Assembly (NCBI GenBank): GCA_963666345.1
Contig: OY762721.1
Span: 3,040,001 to 3,104,000, forward strand
DNA length: 64,000 nt
Reading direction: 5' to 3'
Source of the DNA: Desulfatiglandales bacterium
GTDB taxonomy: Bacteria; Desulfobacterota; DSM-4660; Desulfatiglandales; Desulfatiglandaceae
Under the pieces are notes generated by a model, which was not told the origin of the DNA, made no database searches, and saw only the letters and a program-made list of their open reading frames with translations. Shown here in pieces: positions 31,915 through 63,233 of the stretch. The position numbers were made by a program, and so were the translations under genes. Each line of letters starts with the position of its first letter. Within the stretch, counting starts at the first letter, position 1.

Positions 31915-32805
31915 TTGACAAACTCCGAAACAGAGCACCCGGGATGGCTCGAGATATCGATTGAGGCGGAGCCGACGATACTCGAGCCCCTGAGTGCCTT
32001 TTTATTTGAACTGGGCTCAAGCGGAATCGCCTCGGAAAATCTCGAGGAAAAGCGTCTTTTTGCCTACATCCCTCTTCCGGCTGATCAGGAGGATATAAGG
32101 CGGCGTATTGAGTTTTTTCTGTCTGAATTATCCGTCATCTTTCCGGACATAAGCAGGCCGATCCTTGAAATCGGCAGGATCCAAGATCAGGACTGGAACA
32201 GCAACTGGAAAAGGTTCTTCAAACCAAAGGAGGTTACTCCTGAGCTTTTGATCCTGCCGGCCTGGGAACAGGTGCCTGACAACTATAAAAAGAGGATAAT
32301 ACGGATGGACCCGGGCCCGGCCTTCGGCACGGGCCAGCATTCAACCACAAGCATGTGCCTTCGCGCGATGGAGTTGGTCCGCAGGAAGGAGGGGTGGAAC
32401 ATGCTGGATGTGGGCACGGGAAGCGGGATACTTGCGATCTACGGTGCCATGCTGGGGGCGTCCGCCGTAAAGGCCATCGACATAGACCCTGAAGCGCTCA
32501 GATGGGCTGAAAGAAATATCGGGCTCAATGATGTCGCCGGGTCAATTGCGCTTTCATCGGATTCCTTATATGACATCAGGAAAAAATACTCTGTGGTCGC
32601 GGCCAACCTGATACTGAGTGAAATAGAAAGGATGTTCCATTATCTTCATCGTGTGACGGCGCCGGGCGGGAGTATAATCCTCTCCGGGGTCCTGAGGGAG
32701 CAGGAGGCAACAGTTGAAGGTCTGTGCGGTGATTACAACCTCGTCAAAGCACAGAACCTTTATGATCAGGAATGGGTATGCCTTATCAGGGAAAGACAAC
32801 CTTGA
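31915..32805 (+). CDS. prmA: Ribosomal protein L11 methyltransferase
   Basis: MDPGPAFGTGQHSTT, LDVGTGSGILA. Confidence 0.93.
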   Translation: MTNSETEHPGWLEISIEAEPTILEPLSAFLFELGSSGIASENLEEKRLFAYIPLPADQEDIRRRIEFFLSELSVIFPDISRPILEIGRIQDQDWNSNWKRFFKPKEVTPELLILPAWEQVPDNYKKRIIRMDPGPAFGTGQHSTTSMCLRAMELVRRKEGWNMLDVGTGSGILAIYGAMLGASAVKAIDIDPEALRWAERNIGLNDVAGSIALSSDSLYDIRKKYSVVAANLILSEIERMFHYLHRVTAPGGSIILSGVLREQEATVEGLCGDYNLVKAQNLYDQEWVCLIRERQP

Positions 32806-32966
32806 CGGCTTAGTAAAAAGTCCAATCCCGCGACACGCGGGATTATGCTTCATCTTTCGTCATTGCGGCGTACTATGTGTACGCCTCATTCCTCAAGACT
32901 TGCAAGCCTTGCATTTGGAGCTTTTTCGTTTGCCGTCTGAATTTTGTTTTTTTACGAATTGATCAA
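32802..32966 (+). repeat. About 160-bp MITE-like repeat, copy 1
   Basis: Imperfect terminal IRs TTGACGGCTTAGTAAAAAG...TTTTTTACGAATTGATCAA; near-identical inverted copy at 42104-42258. Confidence 0.85.
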
Positions 32967-36452: not shown

Positions 36453-36760
36453 GGACCATCTCCAAAAGTGTTGATCTAAATGAAGGATTCGAGGGGTCAA
36501 GGGTTCGAGGTATGAGAGGAAAACGACTTTAGGGTGTGTGAGATTTCTCTATATTGCATATGGTTCAGTCTGTGAATTGGAAACCCAGGCCATGATATCA
36601 GGTGACTTGGGTTATAAAAAAACAAAGGCTTCAGGAATTAAGAGGGAAATCGGGGATGTCGAGACAATGCTCAAAGCGATGATCAAATCCCTGGAAAGAA
36701 AACCCTTGAATCCTTGAATCCTGGAACCCTTGGACCCTTTCTCCCAACTAATTGGGAGAA
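36453..36760 (+). mobile_element. Four-helix-bundle element copy B (5' half of ORF deleted, both ends kept)
   Basis: GGACCATCTCCAAAAGTGTTGATC, octamers, 3' half of ORF near-identical to the 49112-49474 gene, CTTGAATC-type x4, TTCTCCCAACTAATTGGGAGAA. Confidence 0.85.
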
Positions 36761-36803
36761 GAACCTGATTTGTAAACTCCGGTCCAGGCAAGGAGATCGT
36801 TTA

Positions 36804-42103: not shown

Positions 42104-42258
42104 TTGATGACATCGTAACAAGTCAAAATTCAGACGGCAAAGTAAAAAGTTCCAAATGCAAGGCTTGCAAATCTTGAGGAATGAGGCGTACATATAGTAC
42201 GCCGCAATGAAGAAAGATGAAGCATAACGCAGCAGTTGGACTTTTTACGAAGCCGTCA
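42104..42258 (-). repeat. About 160-bp MITE-like repeat, copy 2
   Basis: Reverse complement of 32802-32966; 12-bp direct repeat GTCATGTTTGAT at 42097-42108 and 42255-42266. Confidence 0.85.
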
Positions 42259-42461
42259 TGTTTGATTGCGCCTTGATCATGTGGTGGATTCGGAAAAGGA
42301 TGGATGCCGCCGGGTGAAAAGGAAAATCTACCGGACAATGCCCGCCTCTTTAATGAAAAGGCGGGCATATGTAGGGCAGGTTTAGTGCGCCGGGCTCGCA
42401 TTCCTGACGCACAATCAGAACAAGGAGGTAAGGTTTCTCTCAAGTTCATTGACCTTATCTA

Positions 42462-42478: not shown

Positions 42479-42891
42479 TTAGCGAGGTGTTTTAATTTTA
42501 CCAATAATTAATGCATGTTAGGCTTTGCAAGGAAATTCCGGTTTGTAATTTAATATGGAATATTAGAAAATCTTAGAGCTGTTTTTTGAAAAATTTCGAA
42601 ATGGCGAAGCCTTCCGCCTGTGATCTTTTCAAGACGGTGCCCGGAAATCAAGATCGTGAGTCATGATCGATTGCGCCTTGATCGGCAGGTGGATTTTGGT
42701 TTGCATATCTGTCTTGATAAGGTTGAACAATGCGGCTAATGTATTATAGTTAGAGTACATCCGGAAATACACCATTTCCGGATGTTGCTTTCAGCCGTCG
42801 GCTGTCAGCAAGGGGCCGACAAGATGATATTCCGAATGTTTTGCTGACTGCTGAGAGCTGATTGCCGATAGCGTGAGTCCATGAATTTGGT

Positions 42892-43130
42892 TCTTCTCCA
42901 ACTTGGTTGGCGAAGAGGGTCCAGGGACCCAAGGAGTCAAGGGTTTATTTTCTAAAGGCTTTATCAGCATTTTTAACAATTTATTGATCTCTGTCTGCCT
43001 TATGTTATTTGAGAATTTTTAATTTATTCTATATATCTGAAAAGCGTTCGTAGGATTTCCACAAAAGCTTTAAATCTTTGTAATGCTTTAGGGGGTTTAT
43101 CCGCCGTTTCAATGGAGCACTTGAATCCTA
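42892..43130 (-). mobile_element. Four-helix-bundle element copy C (heavily decayed)
   Basis: Hairpin TCTTCTCCAAC-TTG-GTTGGCGAAGA, octamers, remnant LKMLIKPLENKP and LKHYKDLK..WKSY. Confidence 0.7.
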
Positions 43131-43287
43131 CGAGCTCTCAGCCGCTTAAACAAGAAGGATTTCTTTATTTAGCCCTTTTTAACACCAACTGATCGGGAGA
43201 TGACCCATGAATTTTAATTTATGGACAAGCATTAGTCACACTGTCAAACAGACCGGTTTTTTTTACTGAAAAGGGGAGATCACGGAT

Positions 43288-48507: not shown

Positions 48508-49002
48508 CTACCCCATGAACAGTTCCCAGAGTATAGGCGTAGGGAACCAGACATCCAGAAAATACTTGAATACCCCGTATAGAATAGCGGTTACAACTGT
48601 GGGTATTCCGAAAAGCTTGCCGGGCGAACGCTGCTCTACCAGCCACAGCCCGGTGAAAAGAAAGGCCCAGGTGGAAATCTCCAGGCCTATATAGACAAGT
48701 CCCGCCAGATAAAGCACGAGAAGTCCGAGGATACGCAGGCCCTGAAGGGGCTTACCCTGACCGTCAAGGTCCCAGGATGCACCGGCCTGCGGACGCACCA
48801 TACGCCAGATCGAAGGCAGTGCCGCTCCCAGCATCAGGGAAAGAATCAGAAGTGGAAAGATCAGAGGGCCTTTGTAAAAGGGATCCGGGCCGGTGGTGTC
48901 GACGTTCCATTTTATGGTTATTAAAAGGCCTAGGGCAAACAGGCCCAGCACCGTTCCGAAAAGATCATGTATCCTGCTGGATGAATTATACTTATCCGTC
49001 AA
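48508..49002 (-). CDS. tctB: Tripartite tricarboxylate transporter small subunit
   Basis: Several TMs, GPLIFP, FLDVWFP; position before tctA. Confidence 0.85.
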   Translation of the reverse strand: MTDKYNSSSRIHDLFGTVLGLFALGLLITIKWNVDTTGPDPFYKGPLIFPLLILSLMLGAALPSIWRMVRPQAGASWDLDGQGKPLQGLRILGLLVLYLAGLVYIGLEISTWAFLFTGLWLVEQRSPGKLFGIPTVVTAILYGVFKYFLDVWFPTPILWELFMG

Positions 49003-49065
49003 AATCGCTATTTCCTTTTGACCGGAGGGGGAAACCCCTCCGGTTTTATGGTTTCTACTTTAGGT

Positions 49066-49543
49066 CTTTCTCCCAACTAGTTGGGAGAAAGGGTCCAAGG
49101 ATTCAAGGATTCTAGGGTTTGCTTTCCAGGGATTTGATCAACGCTTTAAGCATTGTCTCGACATCCCCGATTTCCTCTCTTAATTCCTGAAGGCTCTCTT
49201 TTTTTAAATAACCTAAGTCACCTGATATCATGGCCTGGGTTTCCAGTTCACAGACTGAACCATATGCAATATAGAGAAATCTCACATACTCTATAGTCGT
49301 TTTCCTCCCATATCCTTCTGCAATATTCGATGGTATGGAAACAGCAGATCTTCTGATTTGGGAGGTCAAACCGTACCGCTCATCTTTTGGAAAACTTCTC
49401 GTTTCTTTATAGATATGTAAACAAAGCGCATACGATTTTTGCCAAACGTTTAACTCTCTATAATTTTTAAGCATTTCACTGGAACCCGCGAACCCTTGGC
49501 CCCTAGAATTTTTCTTTTGGATCAACTCTTTTGGAGATGATCC
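49066..49543 (-). mobile_element. Four-helix-bundle element copy A (intact), between tctC and tctB
   Basis: Starts right after tctC TAG with GGATCATCTCCAAAAGAGTTGATCC; ends in a 26-bp perfect palindrome at 49066-49091. Confidence 0.8.
49112..49474 (-). CDS. Four-helix-bundle protein (23S rRNA IVP-like family)
   Basis: YRELNVWQKS, FPKDERYGLTSQIRRSAVSIPSNIAEG, AYGSVCELETQ. Confidence 0.95.
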   Translation of the reverse strand: MLKNYRELNVWQKSYALCLHIYKETRSFPKDERYGLTSQIRRSAVSIPSNIAEGYGRKTTIEYVRFLYIAYGSVCELETQAMISGDLGYLKKESLQELREEIGDVETMLKALIKSLESKP

Positions 49544-50497
49544 CTACTTTATAATACCCAGTTCCTTCATGATCGCGCCGAAGTTGGCCAGCTCACTGTC
49601 CATCTGTTTGCGGGCCGCTTCCGGGCCTGTCGGGTGGGGGATAACTCCCACCTTTTTGATGACATCCTTTATATCATCCATTGCCATGACCTTGAAAAAG
49701 GTATCGCTGAGTTTCTTGGCTATATCATCAGGGGTTTCGGCCGGCACGAACGCACCGAACCAGATCGAGTAGGCGTCACCGAAGCCCTGTTCCGTAACGG
49801 TTTGCGCGTCCGGATAATTAGGGAGCCTGTCGGGAAGCATGCAGGCCAGGATCTTTATTTTTCCGGCTTCAATATAATCCTTCAGCGCGGGGGTGGAAAA
49901 GGTTATTACATCGGCATCACCCTTTACAACAAGCAGGGGGTTAAGTTTCTTATAGGCTGTTTCTTTCCATTTGAAGCCCCCGATCTTGGCCGCATTCATC
50001 GCGATAAGGGTTGGCACGGCCCCAAGTCCCCAGTGGGCGAGCTTCAATTCATGATCTTTTCCATATTCCGAGAGCTCTTTCAGGTTGCTGTAGGGGGCGT
50101 CCGCCCTGCAGGCCAGTGTGAAAGGGGAAGACCAGATAAGGCCCAGGGCCTTCAGGTCCTGATTTTTGTAGGGGGTCTTTCCCCTCAAGACCTGAGTGAT
50201 CATAGGGCCGATAGAGATAAGGCCCAGGGTATAGCCGTCCGGCCTGCTTTTGGCCAGTTCATTGGTCGCGAGGACCGCCCCTCCGCCCGGTTTGTTGACG
50301 ACCTTTACCGGCACACCCAGTTCCTTTGCCATATGCGGCGCCATGGCATTAGCCACCATGGTGGAAGGATCATTTCCCGCAGGCCATGGGATCATGATCT
50401 TTATCGGTTTTTTCGGCCAGTCCGCCGCTGCGGGACCTGCAAAGGACAGGCAGATAAAGGCTGCAAATACTGCTAAAGCTAACACACGTCTGGACAT
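49544..50497 (-). CDS. tctC: Tripartite tricarboxylate transporter substrate-binding protein
   Basis: WPKKPIKIMIPW, VVNKPGGG, PDGYTL. Confidence 0.92.
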   Translation of the reverse strand: MSRRVLALAVFAAFICLSFAGPAAADWPKKPIKIMIPWPAGNDPSTMVANAMAPHMAKELGVPVKVVNKPGGGAVLATNELAKSRPDGYTLGLISIGPMITQVLRGKTPYKNQDLKALGLIWSSPFTLACRADAPYSNLKELSEYGKDHELKLAHWGLGAVPTLIAMNAAKIGGFKWKETAYKKLNPLLVVKGDADVITFSTPALKDYIEAGKIKILACMLPDRLPNYPDAQTVTEQGFGDAYSIWFGAFVPAETPDDIAKKLSDTFFKVMAMDDIKDVIKKVGVIPHPTGPEAARKQMDSELANFGAIMKELGIIK

Positions 50498-50723
50498 AAA
50501 TTCCTCCTTTAAAATTGAGTTAAGCTGATTTGGTTATAACGCTTTCAATTTATTTCACAGTCATTTTATTATATTTAAAGGGGTCATACAATCAAAATTA
50601 AGAATTCCAAGGCAGTAAATTGTCAATAGGCGTTGAAAATTGACCCATCATCGGCGTCCAAAATTGACCCACCCCTGAGAAAAAAATATGGTTAAATAGT
50701 TGAGTAGTTGATCCCTTCTTTAT

Positions 50724-51455
50724 CTATGAAGCTGCGTGTTTCATTCTCCAGCTTTCGTTACCTGTTTCTATAATTTCACAATGATGAGTCAACCGATCAA
50801 GCATGGCCGTAGTCATTTTTTTATCTCCAAAGACTTGGGGCCATTCACCGAAGGTCAAGTTGGTGGTGATTACTATGGATGTCTGTTCGTAGAGTTTTGA
50901 TATAAGATGAAAGAGCAGTTGACTGCCGTTTTTGGAAAAAGGCAGATAACCCAGTTCATCGAGGACCACAAGATCAAATCGAAGTAGTCTTGCTGTGATT
51001 TTGCCGGCCAATCCAATCATTTTCTCCTGCTCAAGCTCATTTGCCAGATCCACCAGGTTATAAAACTTGCACTTCCTGCCATTCCTTATGGCCTGGGCCG
51101 CTATAGTTATGGCTAAATGGGTTTTGCCCGTACCGGTGCCACCTACAAAAATCAGGTTGATATGTTCGGCTATAAAATCACCCTGATAAATAGACCTAAT
51201 CTGGGCTTCATCAACACAGGCCCCGTTAAAATCAAAGCCATCGATATCTTTAAGGACAGGAAACCTGGCCTGTCCCATACGATATCGGATACTCCTTATA
51301 TATCTTTCGGCAGCTTCAGCCTTGAGCAGTTCCAGGATTACCTTTTCAGGCGTTGAATGGCTCTTGCGTCCATTGGAGACAACTTCATCATAAATGGACT
51401 GCATACCCCGCAACTTTAGTTTTTCCATCTGGTCCATGATATCATTGCGCAGCAT
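50724..51455 (-). CDS. istB: IS21 helper ATPase
   Basis: [24 protein letters not shown]. Confidence 0.96.
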
Positions 51456-52959
51456 GGTATCCCTCCCTTACCAAACGTTCATAGCGGCGGCAGTCTGCTA
51501 TGGGCTCTTGCTTGAGAATCAGATGGGAGGGGATACCCAAATCAGGCGTGCAATCCTGATCCTGATCCCTGTTTAAAAGATTGAGAACCACCTCTTTACT
51601 TACGGCCCTTATCTTTAGGGCCTCCTTACAGGCTTTACTTACAGCCTCAAGTCCGTAGAAAGGAACAGCATTTAGAATGGCCACAAACTGACGGTCCCAG
51701 TCGGAAAAACGGTTTTGAAGCCCATTTAGGACGCCTTCGACAGGATCGGGAAGTTGCCAGTCTTTAAAGGGGGCTCCATTACGGAGAGCCCCGGGCTTAC
51801 GTTCAAGGACCGGGACATAATGCCAGGGATTAAAAATAGTCTTGTTCTTTCCAAAATGCCTATCATGCTCTCCTACGATACAACCGTTATTTACTATCAC
51901 TATCCGATCGGCATATACTCTCATATAGACCGCTTTACCCACCTGGCTGCAATTAACGCTGTATCGGTTCCGGTCATAGGTTACAAGTGAGCTGGGGGTA
52001 ACCCTGGCTGGACGTTGTGCATATCCATCAAAGAGAGGTGGTAGATTTATCAGATAGGGTCTCTCTTCACTGTAGACCTGCCAAACCGTCTTATCAGATA
52101 TTGTTGGATGCTTACGGGTCTTTGCCCAGGTGATGCATTGTTCTCTAAGCAGCTCGTTTAGGTGTGTGAAATCCCTGGCCTTGATTCGGGGAGTGAAAAA
52201 TCTCCTTCTGACCACACCTACCTGGTTTTCCACCTGACCCTTTTCCCAACCTGCAGCAGGGGTGCAGCTTACCGGTTCAAATAAATAATGGGAACACAGT
52301 TGGCTGAAGCGGCTGTTGAACTGTCTTTCCCTTCCTCCCAGGATCTTGTTAACCACTGTTTTGAGATTGTCATAGATGCCTTTACGGCAAACTCCCCCAA
52401 AAAACTCAAAGGCCCTGATATGGGCATCAAACACCATCTCCTGGGTTTCTCTGGGGTAGGCAATACAAAGGAAGTAGCGGCTGTGACATAACCTTATATG
52501 TGCAACCTTTGCCTTTACTCTGCTTCCGTCCAGATCTACCCACTCATGACTCCAGTCAAACTGAAAGGCTTCTGCAGGATCAAATACCAAAGGTATAAAT
52601 ACCTCCTTTGGCAAGCTCCTTTGATCCTGGCGCCATCTTTGAACATATCTCCGTACGCTGTCATAGCCACCTTCGTAGCCGTTGAGTTGCAGCTCTTCAA
52701 AAAGTATCTGGGCTGTCCTGCGCAGTTTTTTGGGCAGTTTCTCGTCTTCTTCCAGAAAGCCTTTCAGCATGTCTATAAACGGCCCCAGCTTGGGTCTTGG
52801 CTGGTTGCTTCGTTCGTACTGAAAAGATGTTTCTCCGCTCCTTATCGCCTTTTTTACTGTATTTTTGCTAAGGCGCAGATCCTTCGCTGTCTGACGTATG
52901 GATTTGCCATCTCTGAGAACAGCTAATCGTATCTTACGGATTGTTTCCACTGTGAGCAT
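51442..52959 (-). CDS. istA: IS21 transposase
   Basis: FQFDW, YDNLK, EKGQVE. Confidence 0.96.
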
Positions 52960-53660
52960 CCCTTTCCGCCTCCTTCTACCATAGTCACAGCAGAATAGAA
53001 GGCTTTCAGGGGTGGGTCAATTTTGGACGCCGATTCGCCCTATAGGTGGGTCATTTTTGCATGCCGATTCACACAGTAAATAATATCCATTACCATTTCT
53101 CTGTCAACCATTTTAGCAGAAAACCCCTTTTATTGCCTCCGTTAAGGATTCGTTTCCTTGTCTGCAGGCGTAAGGGTCTTTAAGCGGAGCCCGGGGGATA
53201 CCTTTTCCCTCTGGCCTAAGAGGCATAACCGGTGAAGCATTATTGCAGATTCACCTGTTTCAGCATCTTACAATTAAACTGTTCAAGATTCATATCATTT
53301 ATTGAAGAAGAACGCATGGCCCAGGATACTGCCTGTCCGCACCGGGCATGTCACCATCCTGTACTGATAAGCAAAGTACGTACCATCAGGTTCGCCAGAT
53401 TTATTGATTCGCTATGCTTCGAAAATACAGCCTGTTAGGCTGCTATCCTCCCCATGATGTAATTGGGGTAACCGTTTGCACGTGTCAGTTTTTTTAACAT
53501 GATGAAAAAAAATGATAAGGCCTGAAGCACGGGGAGATAAAAGTCTCTTCTCCCCGTGATGAATTGTCTGCTCCGGGCATGTCTTTTTTTAACGATTGGG
53601 CAAAATTCAATCCCCGGACATTGCCCATAAAACCGGTTTCTCCTTTTCAAGCCTGTTTGA

Positions 53661-56863: not shown

Positions 56864-56912
56864 AAAGGAAGACTCATTCAATGATTTAAGAGAACAATGA
56901 GCTTACTTTTAA

Positions 56913-57049
56913 TATCTTCACAAAAAGGCATTAAAGTATAAGTATATCAAGCGTTCATTTATTTATGCTTGTTGCATTAAATAAATACAACCGGAGTCAC
57001 CCATGAAGTAATCAGACCCCGTTTCTCGGATAGAGAGGTGGGGTTTTTT
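56913..57049 (+). repeat. About 135-bp direct repeat copy 1 (promoter-hairpin-terminator unit)
   Basis: Near-identical to 60484-60617. Confidence 0.85.
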
Positions 57050-60294: not shown

Positions 60295-60483
60295 AAGCGG
60301 CGGAGTATAGGGAAAAAGGTTGATAGTTGCAGGACGGTTTTGCAGGTCAGGTCATGGAAAAGATCCAAAAGAAAATTTTTAAGAGACGGTCGATGCCAAA
60401 TCAAGTGATTCATAGACATAAAAATCCTGATTAAATCGGTTAAAAACCGGCATCCGGGCACAGAACAATCAACTTGCTTTTGG

Positions 60484-60617
60484 TATCTTGACAAAAAGGC
60501 ATGAAAGTATAAGTATATCAAGCGTTCATTTATTTATGCTTGTTGCATTAAATAAATACAACCGGAGGCCCCATGTGGAAATCAGACCCCGTTTCTCGGA
60601 TAGAGAGGTGGGGTTTT
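60484..60617 (+). repeat. About 135-bp direct repeat copy 2
   Basis: Near-identical to 56913-57049; has TTGACA. Confidence 0.85.
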
Positions 60618-60656: not shown

Positions 60657-60898
60657 GGATCATCTCCAAAAGAGTTGATCCAAATAACGGGTTCTTTGCT
60701 CCGCTTACGCTTCGCTCAGTCCCACTACTTCGTAGCGGGTTCCCGGTTTCAACGGGCCAAGGATTCAAGGTCCCCAGTGGCATACTTTGAAATTGCAGAG
60801 AGTTAAACGGTTGATAAAGAACGTATATGCCTTGCTTGCATATAACAAAACGTTTTTTTTAAAGATGACTGGTGCGTTTTGAACTCCCAAATCATAAA
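60657..60898 (+). mobile_element. Four-helix-bundle element copy D (left end plus decayed 5' ORF)
   Basis: Exact GGATCATCTCCAAAAGAGTTGATCC; GGGCCAAG GATTCAAG GTCCCCAG; AGAGAGTTAAACG...CTCCCAAATCA with stops. Confidence 0.8.
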
Positions 60899-62682: not shown

Positions 62683-63027
62683 TAGTGCCCAGAAGAGATG
62701 AATTGTTCCGCAGCTGCTGCGAGGAGTTCAGAACGTTTCAAACCATGTTTTCCCCTATACTCATCTACATCATTGAGAAGAGATTCAGCCAGGGAAGATG
62801 ACATTAAATCGTTTTTTGGGTTCATTGATAATTTGGCTTTTTGGCTTAGGAATCGGTTTACCATGTTTTTTGGCAGTCTCGATCCATAATTTCATAGCTG
62901 TTTCTATTTCTTTAAGAGCTTCTTCTGGAGTTTCGCCAAAAGCTGAGCATCCTTTAAGCTCTTCGATTTCAGCTATGTAATCACCATCGCCTTCGGGGTC
63001 GGGGAAAATTTTTAAGGTATATTCCAT
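62682..63027 (-). pseudogene. hicB: HicB antitoxin split by a frameshift before its C-terminal DNA-binding part
   Basis: ELKGCSAFGETPEEAL..IPKP; ESLLNDVD..KRSELLA lies in another frame; apparent 4-bp insertion near 62787-62790. Confidence 0.8.
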
Positions 63028-63233
63028 AATTACTCTCCACGTTTCAATAATTTTAATCGCTTGCTTTACCTGATAAGTTTTAGATCCATAATTTCAGTGA
63101 GCATCCTTTAAGCTCTTCGATTTCAGCTATGTAATCACCATCGCCTTCGGGGTCGGGGAAAATTTTTAAGGTATATTCCATAATTACTCTCCATCAATAA
63201 TTTTAATCGCTTGCTTTACCTGATAAGTTTTAG
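62881..63233. repeat. Imperfect tandem duplication across the hicA/hicB junction
   Basis: 62881-63083 repeated at 63083-63233 with about 50 bp missing. Confidence 0.9.

Follow-up and report, generated by a model that had tools for sequence, protein, structure and literature searches.

The unit that separates tctC from tctB in this stretch of DNA is, in our reading, a non-autonomous cut-and-paste transposon, that is, a mobile insertion cassette or cargo-bearing MITE, with ISL3-family ends and an IVS-type (intervening sequence) cassette as its cargo, and we put the probability of this reading at roughly 0.85. It measures 481 bp and occupies window positions 49063–49543, minus strand (the window being the whole 64,000-nt stretch that was analysed). 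Under this reading, an ISL3-type DDE transposase acting in trans would recognise imperfect terminal inverted repeats of about 24 bp and insert the unit into A/T-rich 8-mers, which would thereby be duplicated. The cargo is a four-helix-bundle gene (PF05635, Avd-like) held between a G-rich array before its ATG and a complementary C-rich array after its stop codon. The copy between tctC and tctB would have landed on the tctC stop codon after its strain had split from closely related strains that keep the empty site, and the other ~47 copies of the family would be decaying or internally deleted, some of the deleted ones having gone on transposing. Finally, in read-through transcripts of the tct operon the two arrays may pair as a long stem, which RNase III could cut as in the IVS of 23S rRNA, thereby releasing the gene RNA and splitting the operon transcript.

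As a mobile element the unit is of an ordinary kind; what is unusual is its cargo and its two-layer build. The locus provides a clean, countable case: the gene and its repeat arms ride on a transposon whose ends and target duplication are defined, for which empty alleles exist and whose transposase family can be identified. It thereby shows one concrete way in which the PF05635 gene family moves around genomes, and makes the spread of this gene an experimentally tractable question.

Boundaries and ends of the element

Read on the minus strand, the DNA that follows the tctC stop codon consists of a 25-nt hairpin-like end, three to four octamers, a 120-aa ORF, three complementary octamers and a 26-nt palindrome, in a setting of tctC, tctB and tctA as flanking genes (Table 1). 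These motifs had all been quoted in an earlier, sequence-only reading of the same DNA, and all of them are present: the 25-nt hairpin at 49519–49543, the 26-nt palindrome at 49066–49091, the octamers on both sides and the 120-aa ORF. The upstream octamers conform to (T/G)(T/C)C.(A/C)GGG and their array stops 3 nt ahead of the ATG. For both end motifs, 0.00 matches are expected by chance (100 shuffles).

The outer limits needed revision. That reading had the unit start at 49066; the 8-bp direct repeat CTACTTTA (49055–49062 and 49544–49551) lies directly outside the ends, and the element is therefore 49063–49543, 481 bp. The claim that it begins exactly after the tctC stop codon holds insofar as the duplicated 8-mer includes the TAG. 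When the 27 longest copies in the genome were aligned together with 120-nt flanks, their edges were sharp and their flanks unrelated, with consensus edges of GGATCATCTCCAAAAGAGTTGG... at the gene's 5′ side and GGTTCTTCTCCAACTTAGTTG... at its 3′ side, read inward. The two consensus ends match one another at 16 of 24 positions in the main subfamily (n = 27); in a second subfamily (n = 12), whose 5′ end is a variant, the figure is 18 of 24. The subfamily count took in 42 elements, three of which fit neither. A short palindrome lies inside each terminal inverted repeat, and the perfect 3′ palindrome of the copy between tctC and tctB is a minority variant, most copies having two stem mismatches. 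Given these consensus edges, the two ‘hairpins’, which had been taken for distinct left and right ends, are imperfect terminal inverted repeats of ISL3 type. Such inverted ends together with an 8-bp duplication suggest that mobility would come from a DDE transposase acting in trans and not from the hairpins themselves.

Table 1. Coordinates, strand and character of the element, its neighbours and its further copies in the window.
Feature	Position	Strand	Remarks
Target-site duplication, tctB side	49055..49062		CTACTTTA on + strand; the two flanking 8-mers are identical
3′ terminal inverted repeat (gene orientation)	49063..49091	-	GGTCTTTCTCCCAACTAG... inward; perfect palindrome 49066-49091 inside
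Downstream octamer array, C-rich arm	49092..49117	-	CCTAGAATC CTTGAATC CTTGGACC, gene strand; family D3
Four-helix-bundle gene (23S rRNA IVP / TIGR02436), intact, 120 aa	49112..49474	-	PF05635; stop codon included
Upstream octamer array, G-rich arm	49478..49504	-	TTCTAGGG GCCAAGGG TTCGCGGG TTCCAG, gene strand
5′ terminal inverted repeat (small hairpin, 25 nt)	49519..49543	-	GGATCATCTCCAAAAGAGTTGATCC
Target-site duplication, tctC side	49544..49551		CTACTTTA; contains the tctC stop codon (TAG, gene strand)
tctC, gene upstream of the insertion	49544..50497	-	PF03401 E 1.3e-40
tctB, gene downstream of the insertion	48508..49002	-	PF07331 E 3.8e-12
Second copy, 313 bp	36453..36765	+	both ends, gene dead; positions 59-231 of the full element deleted (173 nt)
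Third copy, 318 bp	42889..43206	-	both ends, gene a remnant; variant-5′-end subfamily (GGGTCATCTCCCG...)
Fourth copy, truncated	60657..60897 (right bound approximate)	+	5′ end, extra ~55-nt arm module, arrays, decayed gene start; without 3′ end

Copies in the window and in the genome

Three more copies with the same end motifs had been proposed for the window, and this proposal stands in part. The second copy has both ends and a duplication that reads TCATTTGT/TGATTTGT; the third also has both ends, flanked by the perfect duplication ATGAATTT, but its 5′ end is of the variant type; the fourth has the 5′ end only.

Searched against its own 4.16-Mb genome, the unit matches about 60 places (blastn). 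For a genome-wide census the end motifs were paired, a pair being kept if its ends were good or its flanking 8-mers agreed, which gave 54 pairs; six of these were dropped (two pairs with weak ends separated by over 2.7 kb, and four that reused an end already paired), leaving 48 end-paired elements of 105–603 bp. The flanking 8-mers are identical in 27 of them, differ at one position in 15 and at more in six. Because this census was partly selected by the duplication, the count was redone on ends alone. It yielded 46 adjacent inward-facing pairs, 90–700 bp apart, with identical 8-mers in 24 and a single mismatch in 11, whereas control 8-mers taken 12 nt further out agree within two mismatches in none of the 46. 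The duplicated 8-mers are 83% A+T, as against 52% for the genome. None of the 48 copies has a transposase inside it; an ORF of at least 110 aa occurs in the copy at 49063–49543 only, and this single long ORF is the 120-aa PF05635 gene.

Could such a family have grown by segmental duplication, or be an immobile structured intergenic repeat of REP-like or regulatory type? Most copies are indeed intergenic and hairpin-rich, as this explanation would have it. However, their flanks are unrelated to one another, contradicting the large segmental duplication that the sequence-only reading had weighed against mobility, and 35 of the 46 end pairs carry the 8-bp duplication with at most one mismatch. 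Precise empty alleles exist, and these ends are also present in records that bear the label of other phyla (both described below). We consider this explanation extremely improbable.

Empty alleles and propagation of deleted forms

Four public runs provided evidence in the form of assembled contigs, not reads, and in two of them tctC is found without the element beside it. Specifically, run X8 has a contig of 576 nt that connects 49054 with 49544 and skips 489 nt, that is, the element plus one 8-mer; eight ambiguous letters at the joint fit either side and correspond to one duplication 8-mer, and the shorter side of the contig is 255 nt. A contig of the DNA run X7 joins 49053 to 49548, with five substituted letters and the stop codon TAG changed to TAA. 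The two contigs come from two studies; in the flanks, each is about 2% different from the window, and they have several of these differences in common. As tctC is joined precisely to tctB in both, the insertion is polymorphic, and the precise empty sites that had been looked for between these two genes exist. The cleanest empty-site contig (X8) comes from an RNA library, and the absence of the element from related DNA is shown most safely by X7. These empty alleles prove only that the insertion took place since strains about 2% apart diverged. In a further run, X5, depth over the element is 10–25 times that of its flanks and the assembly is broken at the element edges. Contigs of the RNA run X8 cover parts of the element.

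Movement is also recorded in the copies that have lost internal sequence. The junction left by deletion of positions 59–231 is identical in four copies at different loci, including the copy at 36453–36765 in the window, and two further deletion junctions, one of 55 nt and one of 144 nt, are each common to two copies at different loci. Since identical junctions recur at different loci, the deleted forms were copied after the deletion, and thus without a working gene. The paired ends, 8-bp duplications, empty alleles and unrelated flanks bear out the original view of the unit as a discrete mobile element that lacks a transposase.

The probable mobilising transposase

Elements of the ISL3 family generate 8-bp duplications and have ends that begin with GG. 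We confirmed these traits on resident and metagenomic ISL3 copies, which have perfect A/T-rich 8-bp duplications and ends that begin GGTTC. The resident copies are three ISL3-family elements, identical and 1349 bp long, each with an intact transposase gene; their ends (GGTTCATCCGGCAAATGCCGGGGT) match those of our element at 10–12 of 24 positions, the common part being the outer 8 nt only. We therefore rejected them as the cognate IS, and cross-mobilisation by them is possible. No cognate-ended transposase was found in the genome, where PF01610 has three matches, all of them to this other, resident subgroup, and no end pair more than 1 kb apart in the genome has a duplication. Similarly, the ISL3 loci of 40 relatives contain no full IS with matching ends, only a remnant in one of them (G013), and among five element-rich genomes, all draft assemblies, three lack a PF01610 match and one full ISL3 copy, with other ends, was seen. 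Two large candidate parent elements among the 80 exact-5′-end loci described below were also discarded: in L089 the 3′ palindrome holds a nested IS110-like fragment, and L093 has no duplication.

Closer ends were found in metagenomes. A scan with the resident transposase returned 46 loci, among which four distant relatives (L235–L238; 33–37% identical) have a length of 1349–1351 bp and a PF01610 match at E 6.8e-73. The ends of these four, GGTTCTCATCCAATAAAGTTGGTT and GGTTCAACTCCCAAAAAGTTGGTT, match the 5′ end of our element at 17 and 19 of 24 positions; the higher figure belongs to the right end of L236 and L237, and L237 has a perfect 8-bp duplication. For the copy between tctC and tctB, comparison with the right end of this metagenomic ISL3 element gives 18/24 at the 5′ end (49519–49543) and 16/24 at the 3′ end. 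The relative G013, which has 12 element matches, carries a 38-aa C-terminal transposase fragment that is 74% identical to L237 and adjoins an end, and 20 of 24 positions of this end agree with the 3′ end of the element. Because of the similarity of the ends and the length of the duplication, mobilisation in trans by an ISL3 subgroup of the L237 type is indicated, and we infer that the mobilising enzyme is a transposase of this subgroup.

The four-helix-bundle gene

The 120-aa ORF is a full member of its family by profile scores, with matches to PF05635 (E 4.9e-40, 136.5 bits; cut-off 33.8), TIGR02436 (136.2 bits; cut-off 24) and NF008911 (152 bits). It is most like a solved Xanthomonas protein (PDB 2gsc, E 4e-28; five chains in the entry), and this likeness supports a putative four-helix-bundle pentameric ring. 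The helix face R-x3-S-x3-N-x2-E is present in the translation (...IRRSAVSIPSNIAEG...), with the leading G off the offset stated for the family motif, which is given as GxxRxxxSxxxNxxE in the available text of PMC3936711. Members of the PF05635 family are described inside rRNA genes, CRISPR-cas loci and operons (PMC3936711, PMC11270868), and their protein is called uncharacterised (PMC11270868, PMC10053308), in those parts of the papers that are accessible. A PADLOC search gave no match, and an Rfam search gave nothing near the gathering score.

Where the gene is intact, it is under purifying selection. Among intact octamer-type genes, dN/dS is 0.06, 0.10 and 0.12 in three of ten pairs, the other seven pairs being dS-saturated, and comparison of the copy between tctC and tctB with six dead copies of the genome gives 0.34–0.73, as would be expected of one constrained and one free branch. 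These values indicate that the source lineage of this young insertion has kept its gene and that the daughter copies decay.

Inverted arrays and a predicted RNA stem

The arrays around the gene are not peculiar to this element. Six other intact PF05635 paralogs in the genome lack these ends, and each has a tandem array of 7–8-nt units upstream and its reverse complement downstream; the array units of the paralogs differ, for example GGAACGC/GCGTTCC, TTGATGA/ATCAACA, CGGTGAT/ATCACCG and CTAAAGTGA/TCACTTTAG. A wider sample was taken from other families of the phylum (28 loci). RNAduplex energies of the flanks did not separate gene loci from shifted controls, so alignment scores were used. Inverted 7–8-nt arrays flank the PF05635 gene in 25 of the 28 loci, above every one of 20–40 shifted controls, and the inverted-match score is at least 30 in 22. 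There are three exceptions: two loci whose upstream and downstream arrays run in the same sense (L054, L062), and a weak one (L065). The period is 7 in most sampled loci and 8 in this gene's own subgroup, and the sequence of the unit varies between loci and gene lineages. The inverted arrays belong to the gene and not to the transposon. As the transposon ends are swappable and the arrays are constant partners of the gene, it is in the arrays that function is to be sought.

What might the arrays do? In the predicted RNA fold of the element (−149.5 kcal/mol, z −5.17), a 5′ hairpin is followed by a long array–array stem, which encloses the ORF and extends to the start codon, and then by a 3′ hairpin. 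A folding-out of the ORF from transcripts would fit this predicted structure and also, by analogy, the intervening sequence of Coxiella. No promoter-like site was seen ahead of the gene within the element, those elements that lie between co-directional genes share their neighbours' orientation in 18 cases against 5 (with crude ORF calling), and the genome has an RNase III gene; given these three observations, read-through transcription followed by RNase III cutting is a reasonable model.

Alternatively, the arrays might be sites at the level of DNA, either paired protein sites or the arms of single-stranded DNA hairpins, with complementarity kept for that reason and not for an RNA stem. Mismatches between the arms comprise 32 transitions that are G-U-compatible on the sense strand, 32 that are so on the antisense strand and 85 transversions; there is thus no excess on the sense strand and no RNA-strand signal. 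Tandem repeats with a fixed period of 7 or 8 are typical of protein-binding iterons, and the change of unit sequence with gene lineage would suit such sites as well. However, the arms are strongly polar (G exceeds C in the upstream arm at 28 of 32 loci) and abut the start and stop codons, the end of the upstream arm usually lying within about 20 nt of the start codon. The orientation of elements between co-directional genes, as counted above with crude ORF calling, and the cutting of the homologous Coxiella arms as RNA by RNase III, described in the accessible part of PMC4990558, likewise point to transcripts. On balance, a DNA-level role for the arrays (protein sites, single-strand hairpins) in place of an RNA stem seems to us the less likely.

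Distribution in other genomes and a possible contribution of the gene to spread

Element DNA was matched in 12 of 40 relatives of other genera. At least 111 stretches of a species-representative genome collection contain the exact 21-nt 5′ end; among the matches listed, most are Desulfobacterales or Thermodesulfobacteriota MAGs and some are labelled Aminicenantes, Acetothermia and others, with the proviso that phylum labels of binned genomes can be wrong. Eighty loci were fetched among the matches listed. A gene remnant is present in 18 of these and absent from 62, and the gene is apparently intact in one. A recognisable 3′ end lies within 3.1 kb in 29 of the 80, which gives sizes of 121–479 bp plus two larger ones, and rRNA was found in none of the 80. 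Two further genomes, G005 and G143, the latter from another family, have gene-bearing copies, intact or almost intact, that possess these ends. The end motifs therefore do co-occur with the gene or its remnants, both across the genome and in other genera, as the first reading of the sequence had supposed. The gene also occurs apart from them: a locus in G003 (L188) has an intact gene and arrays without these ends, and PF05635 is present in 86 of 151 sampled genomes of the phylum.

With an intact gene in only one of 48 copies here and in one of 80 loci elsewhere, the cargo is clearly dispensable for persistence of the DNA. It has been suggested for intervening sequences that the ORF encodes a component of mobility (Ralph and McClelland, 1993, as quoted in the available text of PMC4990558), and the four-helix-bundle protein might itself be required for spread, as an accessory factor that binds the arrays at both ends like iterons, the single intact copy being the autonomous master and the other copies its non-autonomous dependants. 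One intact copy set against 47 defective ones would agree with this, as would the constraint on the intact lineage, the array unit proper to each paralogous gene lineage and the lack of a cognate transposase among the genes of this genome. Nevertheless, terminal inverted repeats combined with a duplication of constant length (8 bp) are the hallmark of a DDE transposase, there are ISL3 elements whose ends nearly match, and 62 of the 80 exact-5′-end loci among the matches listed have no gene remnant. Intact genes with arrays also occur without these ends, in L188 of G003 and in the other paralogs of this genome, and to our knowledge the PF05635 family has neither a known function nor a known catalytic motif. 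We judge a requirement for the protein unlikely and retain transposition in trans by an ISL3-type enzyme as the better account.

Comparison with known mobile and intervening sequences

In mobile insertion cassettes, for example MIC231, a passenger gene is enclosed by inverted ends of IS type and a target duplication, and mobilisation is in trans. Our element is like them in its inverted IS-type ends, target duplication and passenger gene, but its passenger is an orphan intervening-sequence protein and not a metabolic or resistance gene, and it has many gene-less derivatives. Another close parallel is the 187-nt ISL3-derived MITE of Microcystis aeruginosa PCC 7806, which, in the portion of PMC11448079 that is available, is described as transposase-less, with imperfect inverted ends that start GG.TC.TC as in ISL3 elements, 8-nt direct repeats, dozens of copies and a stem-loop RNA fold, all features found here as well; one of its copies lies in a 23S rRNA gene (PMC11448079). 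In contrast to that MITE, the full-length form here carries a PF05635 gene with its own inverted arrays, the end sequences differ, and the cognate IS has turned up only in metagenomic sequences and, as a remnant, in one relative.

The cargo has its nearest counterpart in the 23S rRNA IVS of Coxiella burnetii. There, according to the accessible text of PMC4990558, tandem GACAGAT heptamers precede the S23p ATG, the termini are complementary and pair as a 28-bp stem, and the first repeat is where RNase III cuts. The two share the protein family, tandem 7–8-nt repeats before the start codon, complementary arms (here a predicted stem) and decay of the ORF. Unlike the Coxiella sequence, our element lies between transporter genes, tctC and tctB, and not in rRNA; the single 23S gene of its genome, at 3023 nt against a 2925-position model, has no large insertion. 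Outer transposon ends with an 8-bp duplication are not described for the Coxiella IVS in that part of PMC4990558, where the origin of IVS is called unclear and transposition figures as a hypothesis only.

It is tempting to speculate that protein-coding rRNA IVS are such cassettes, delivered by IS-ended vehicles, and that the protein also acts as a ring on its own 7–8-nt arrays, so that the cassette is cut from host transcripts or its ends are brought together. This idea, which we hold only tentatively, would explain why the source gene is selected and the daughters decay. In the openly accessible literature we found no paper that links the PF05635 family to MITEs or ISL3, or that places the gene on a transposon. 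Convergent arrays of a similar kind are on record from Xanthomonas, with about 70 pairs of GGGAATC heptamer arrays (PMC4692102), and we found no mention of the PF05635 family in the accessible part of that paper.

A last comparison concerns Avd, the accessory protein family of diversity-generating retroelements. Among the ORFs called in the 47–52 kb part of the window, and judged mostly by reading their translations, none resembles a reverse transcriptase, and the 120-aa protein reaches 25.5 bits with the Avd equivalog model NF033474, whose cut-off is 80. Nevertheless, it resembles Avd in belonging to a related four-helix-bundle fold family (PF22296, E 1.3e-05).

Modules, possible stray arms and a nested insertion at element copies

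About half of the long copies of the 481-bp transposase-less element carry an optional GC-rich module of ~55 nt (...GCTCAGTCCCACTGCTTCGCAGCGGGTTCCCGG) between the 5′ end and the inverted arrays. Copies with the module also contain its reverse complement on the 3′ side, so that the potential stem becomes longer. The module recurs beside an intact PF05635 paralog that has no transposon ends (position 2066743 of the source genome, G000). One PF05635 paralog has arms made up of TTTAGTCAC(T) nonamer arrays, and such arrays also directly adjoin an unrelated transposon copy, which suggests that the latter are single arms left over from other cassettes.

In another genome (locus L089), the 3′ palindrome of an element copy is split by an insertion of ~800 bp, and the outer 8-mers of this copy still agree at seven of eight positions. 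The insertion encodes what appears to be the C-terminal part of a putative transposase, which, on reading of its sequence, looks like the IS110 type.

Locations of repeats, modules and putative mobile elements
Feature	Location	Remark
Element copy with split 3′ palindrome	L089:3000-4124	another genome
GC-rich ~55-nt module	window 60688-60745	example in the truncated copy; many further copies in G000
TTTAGTCAC(T) nonamer arrays	G000:C1:3013889-3014291 (flank); 1645777-1646064 (flanks)	
Putative IS21-like element	window 50650-53035	two ORFs between perfect inverted repeats
29-nt perfect inverted repeats	window 50650-50678; 53006-53034	bracket both IS21-like ORFs
124-nt inverted repeat	window 32843-32966; 42104-42227	arms 90% complementary, 9.1 kb apart
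Second repeat pair	window 32797-32825; 42236-42264	close to the 124-nt repeat
~157-nt direct repeat	window 56891-57047; 60462-60617	92-94% identity, copies 3.57 kb apart
Tandem duplication	window 62944-63233	perfect, period ~150 nt
Repeat run	G000:C1:2455625-2459485	outside the window; at least 24 repeats, 61-nt spacing
PF05635-like ORF	G000 2453592-2453807	27.6 bits

A CRISPR-like array and neighbouring repeats

Elsewhere in the source genome, a run of regularly spaced repeats looks like a CRISPR array, and ~2 kb upstream of it lies an ORF with a weak, below-cut-off match to PF05635. Members of this gene family are reported from within cas loci (PMC3936711).

Within the window, the upstream side of tctC is adjoined by a putative mobile element with ORFs of 505 and 243 aa, the second of which contains a Walker-type GGTGTGKTH motif; we refer to it as IS21-like from the translations of these ORFs. 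The 124-nt inverted repeat and the repeat pair close to it may mark the two termini of some larger element; alternatively, they may be a different repeat present in two copies. The ~157-nt direct repeat has a hairpin and then a run of T at its end, and its second copy lies a short distance upstream of the truncated element at 60657. Finally, the tandem duplication consists of blocks of 96 nt and 40 nt, each present twice at 100% identity.
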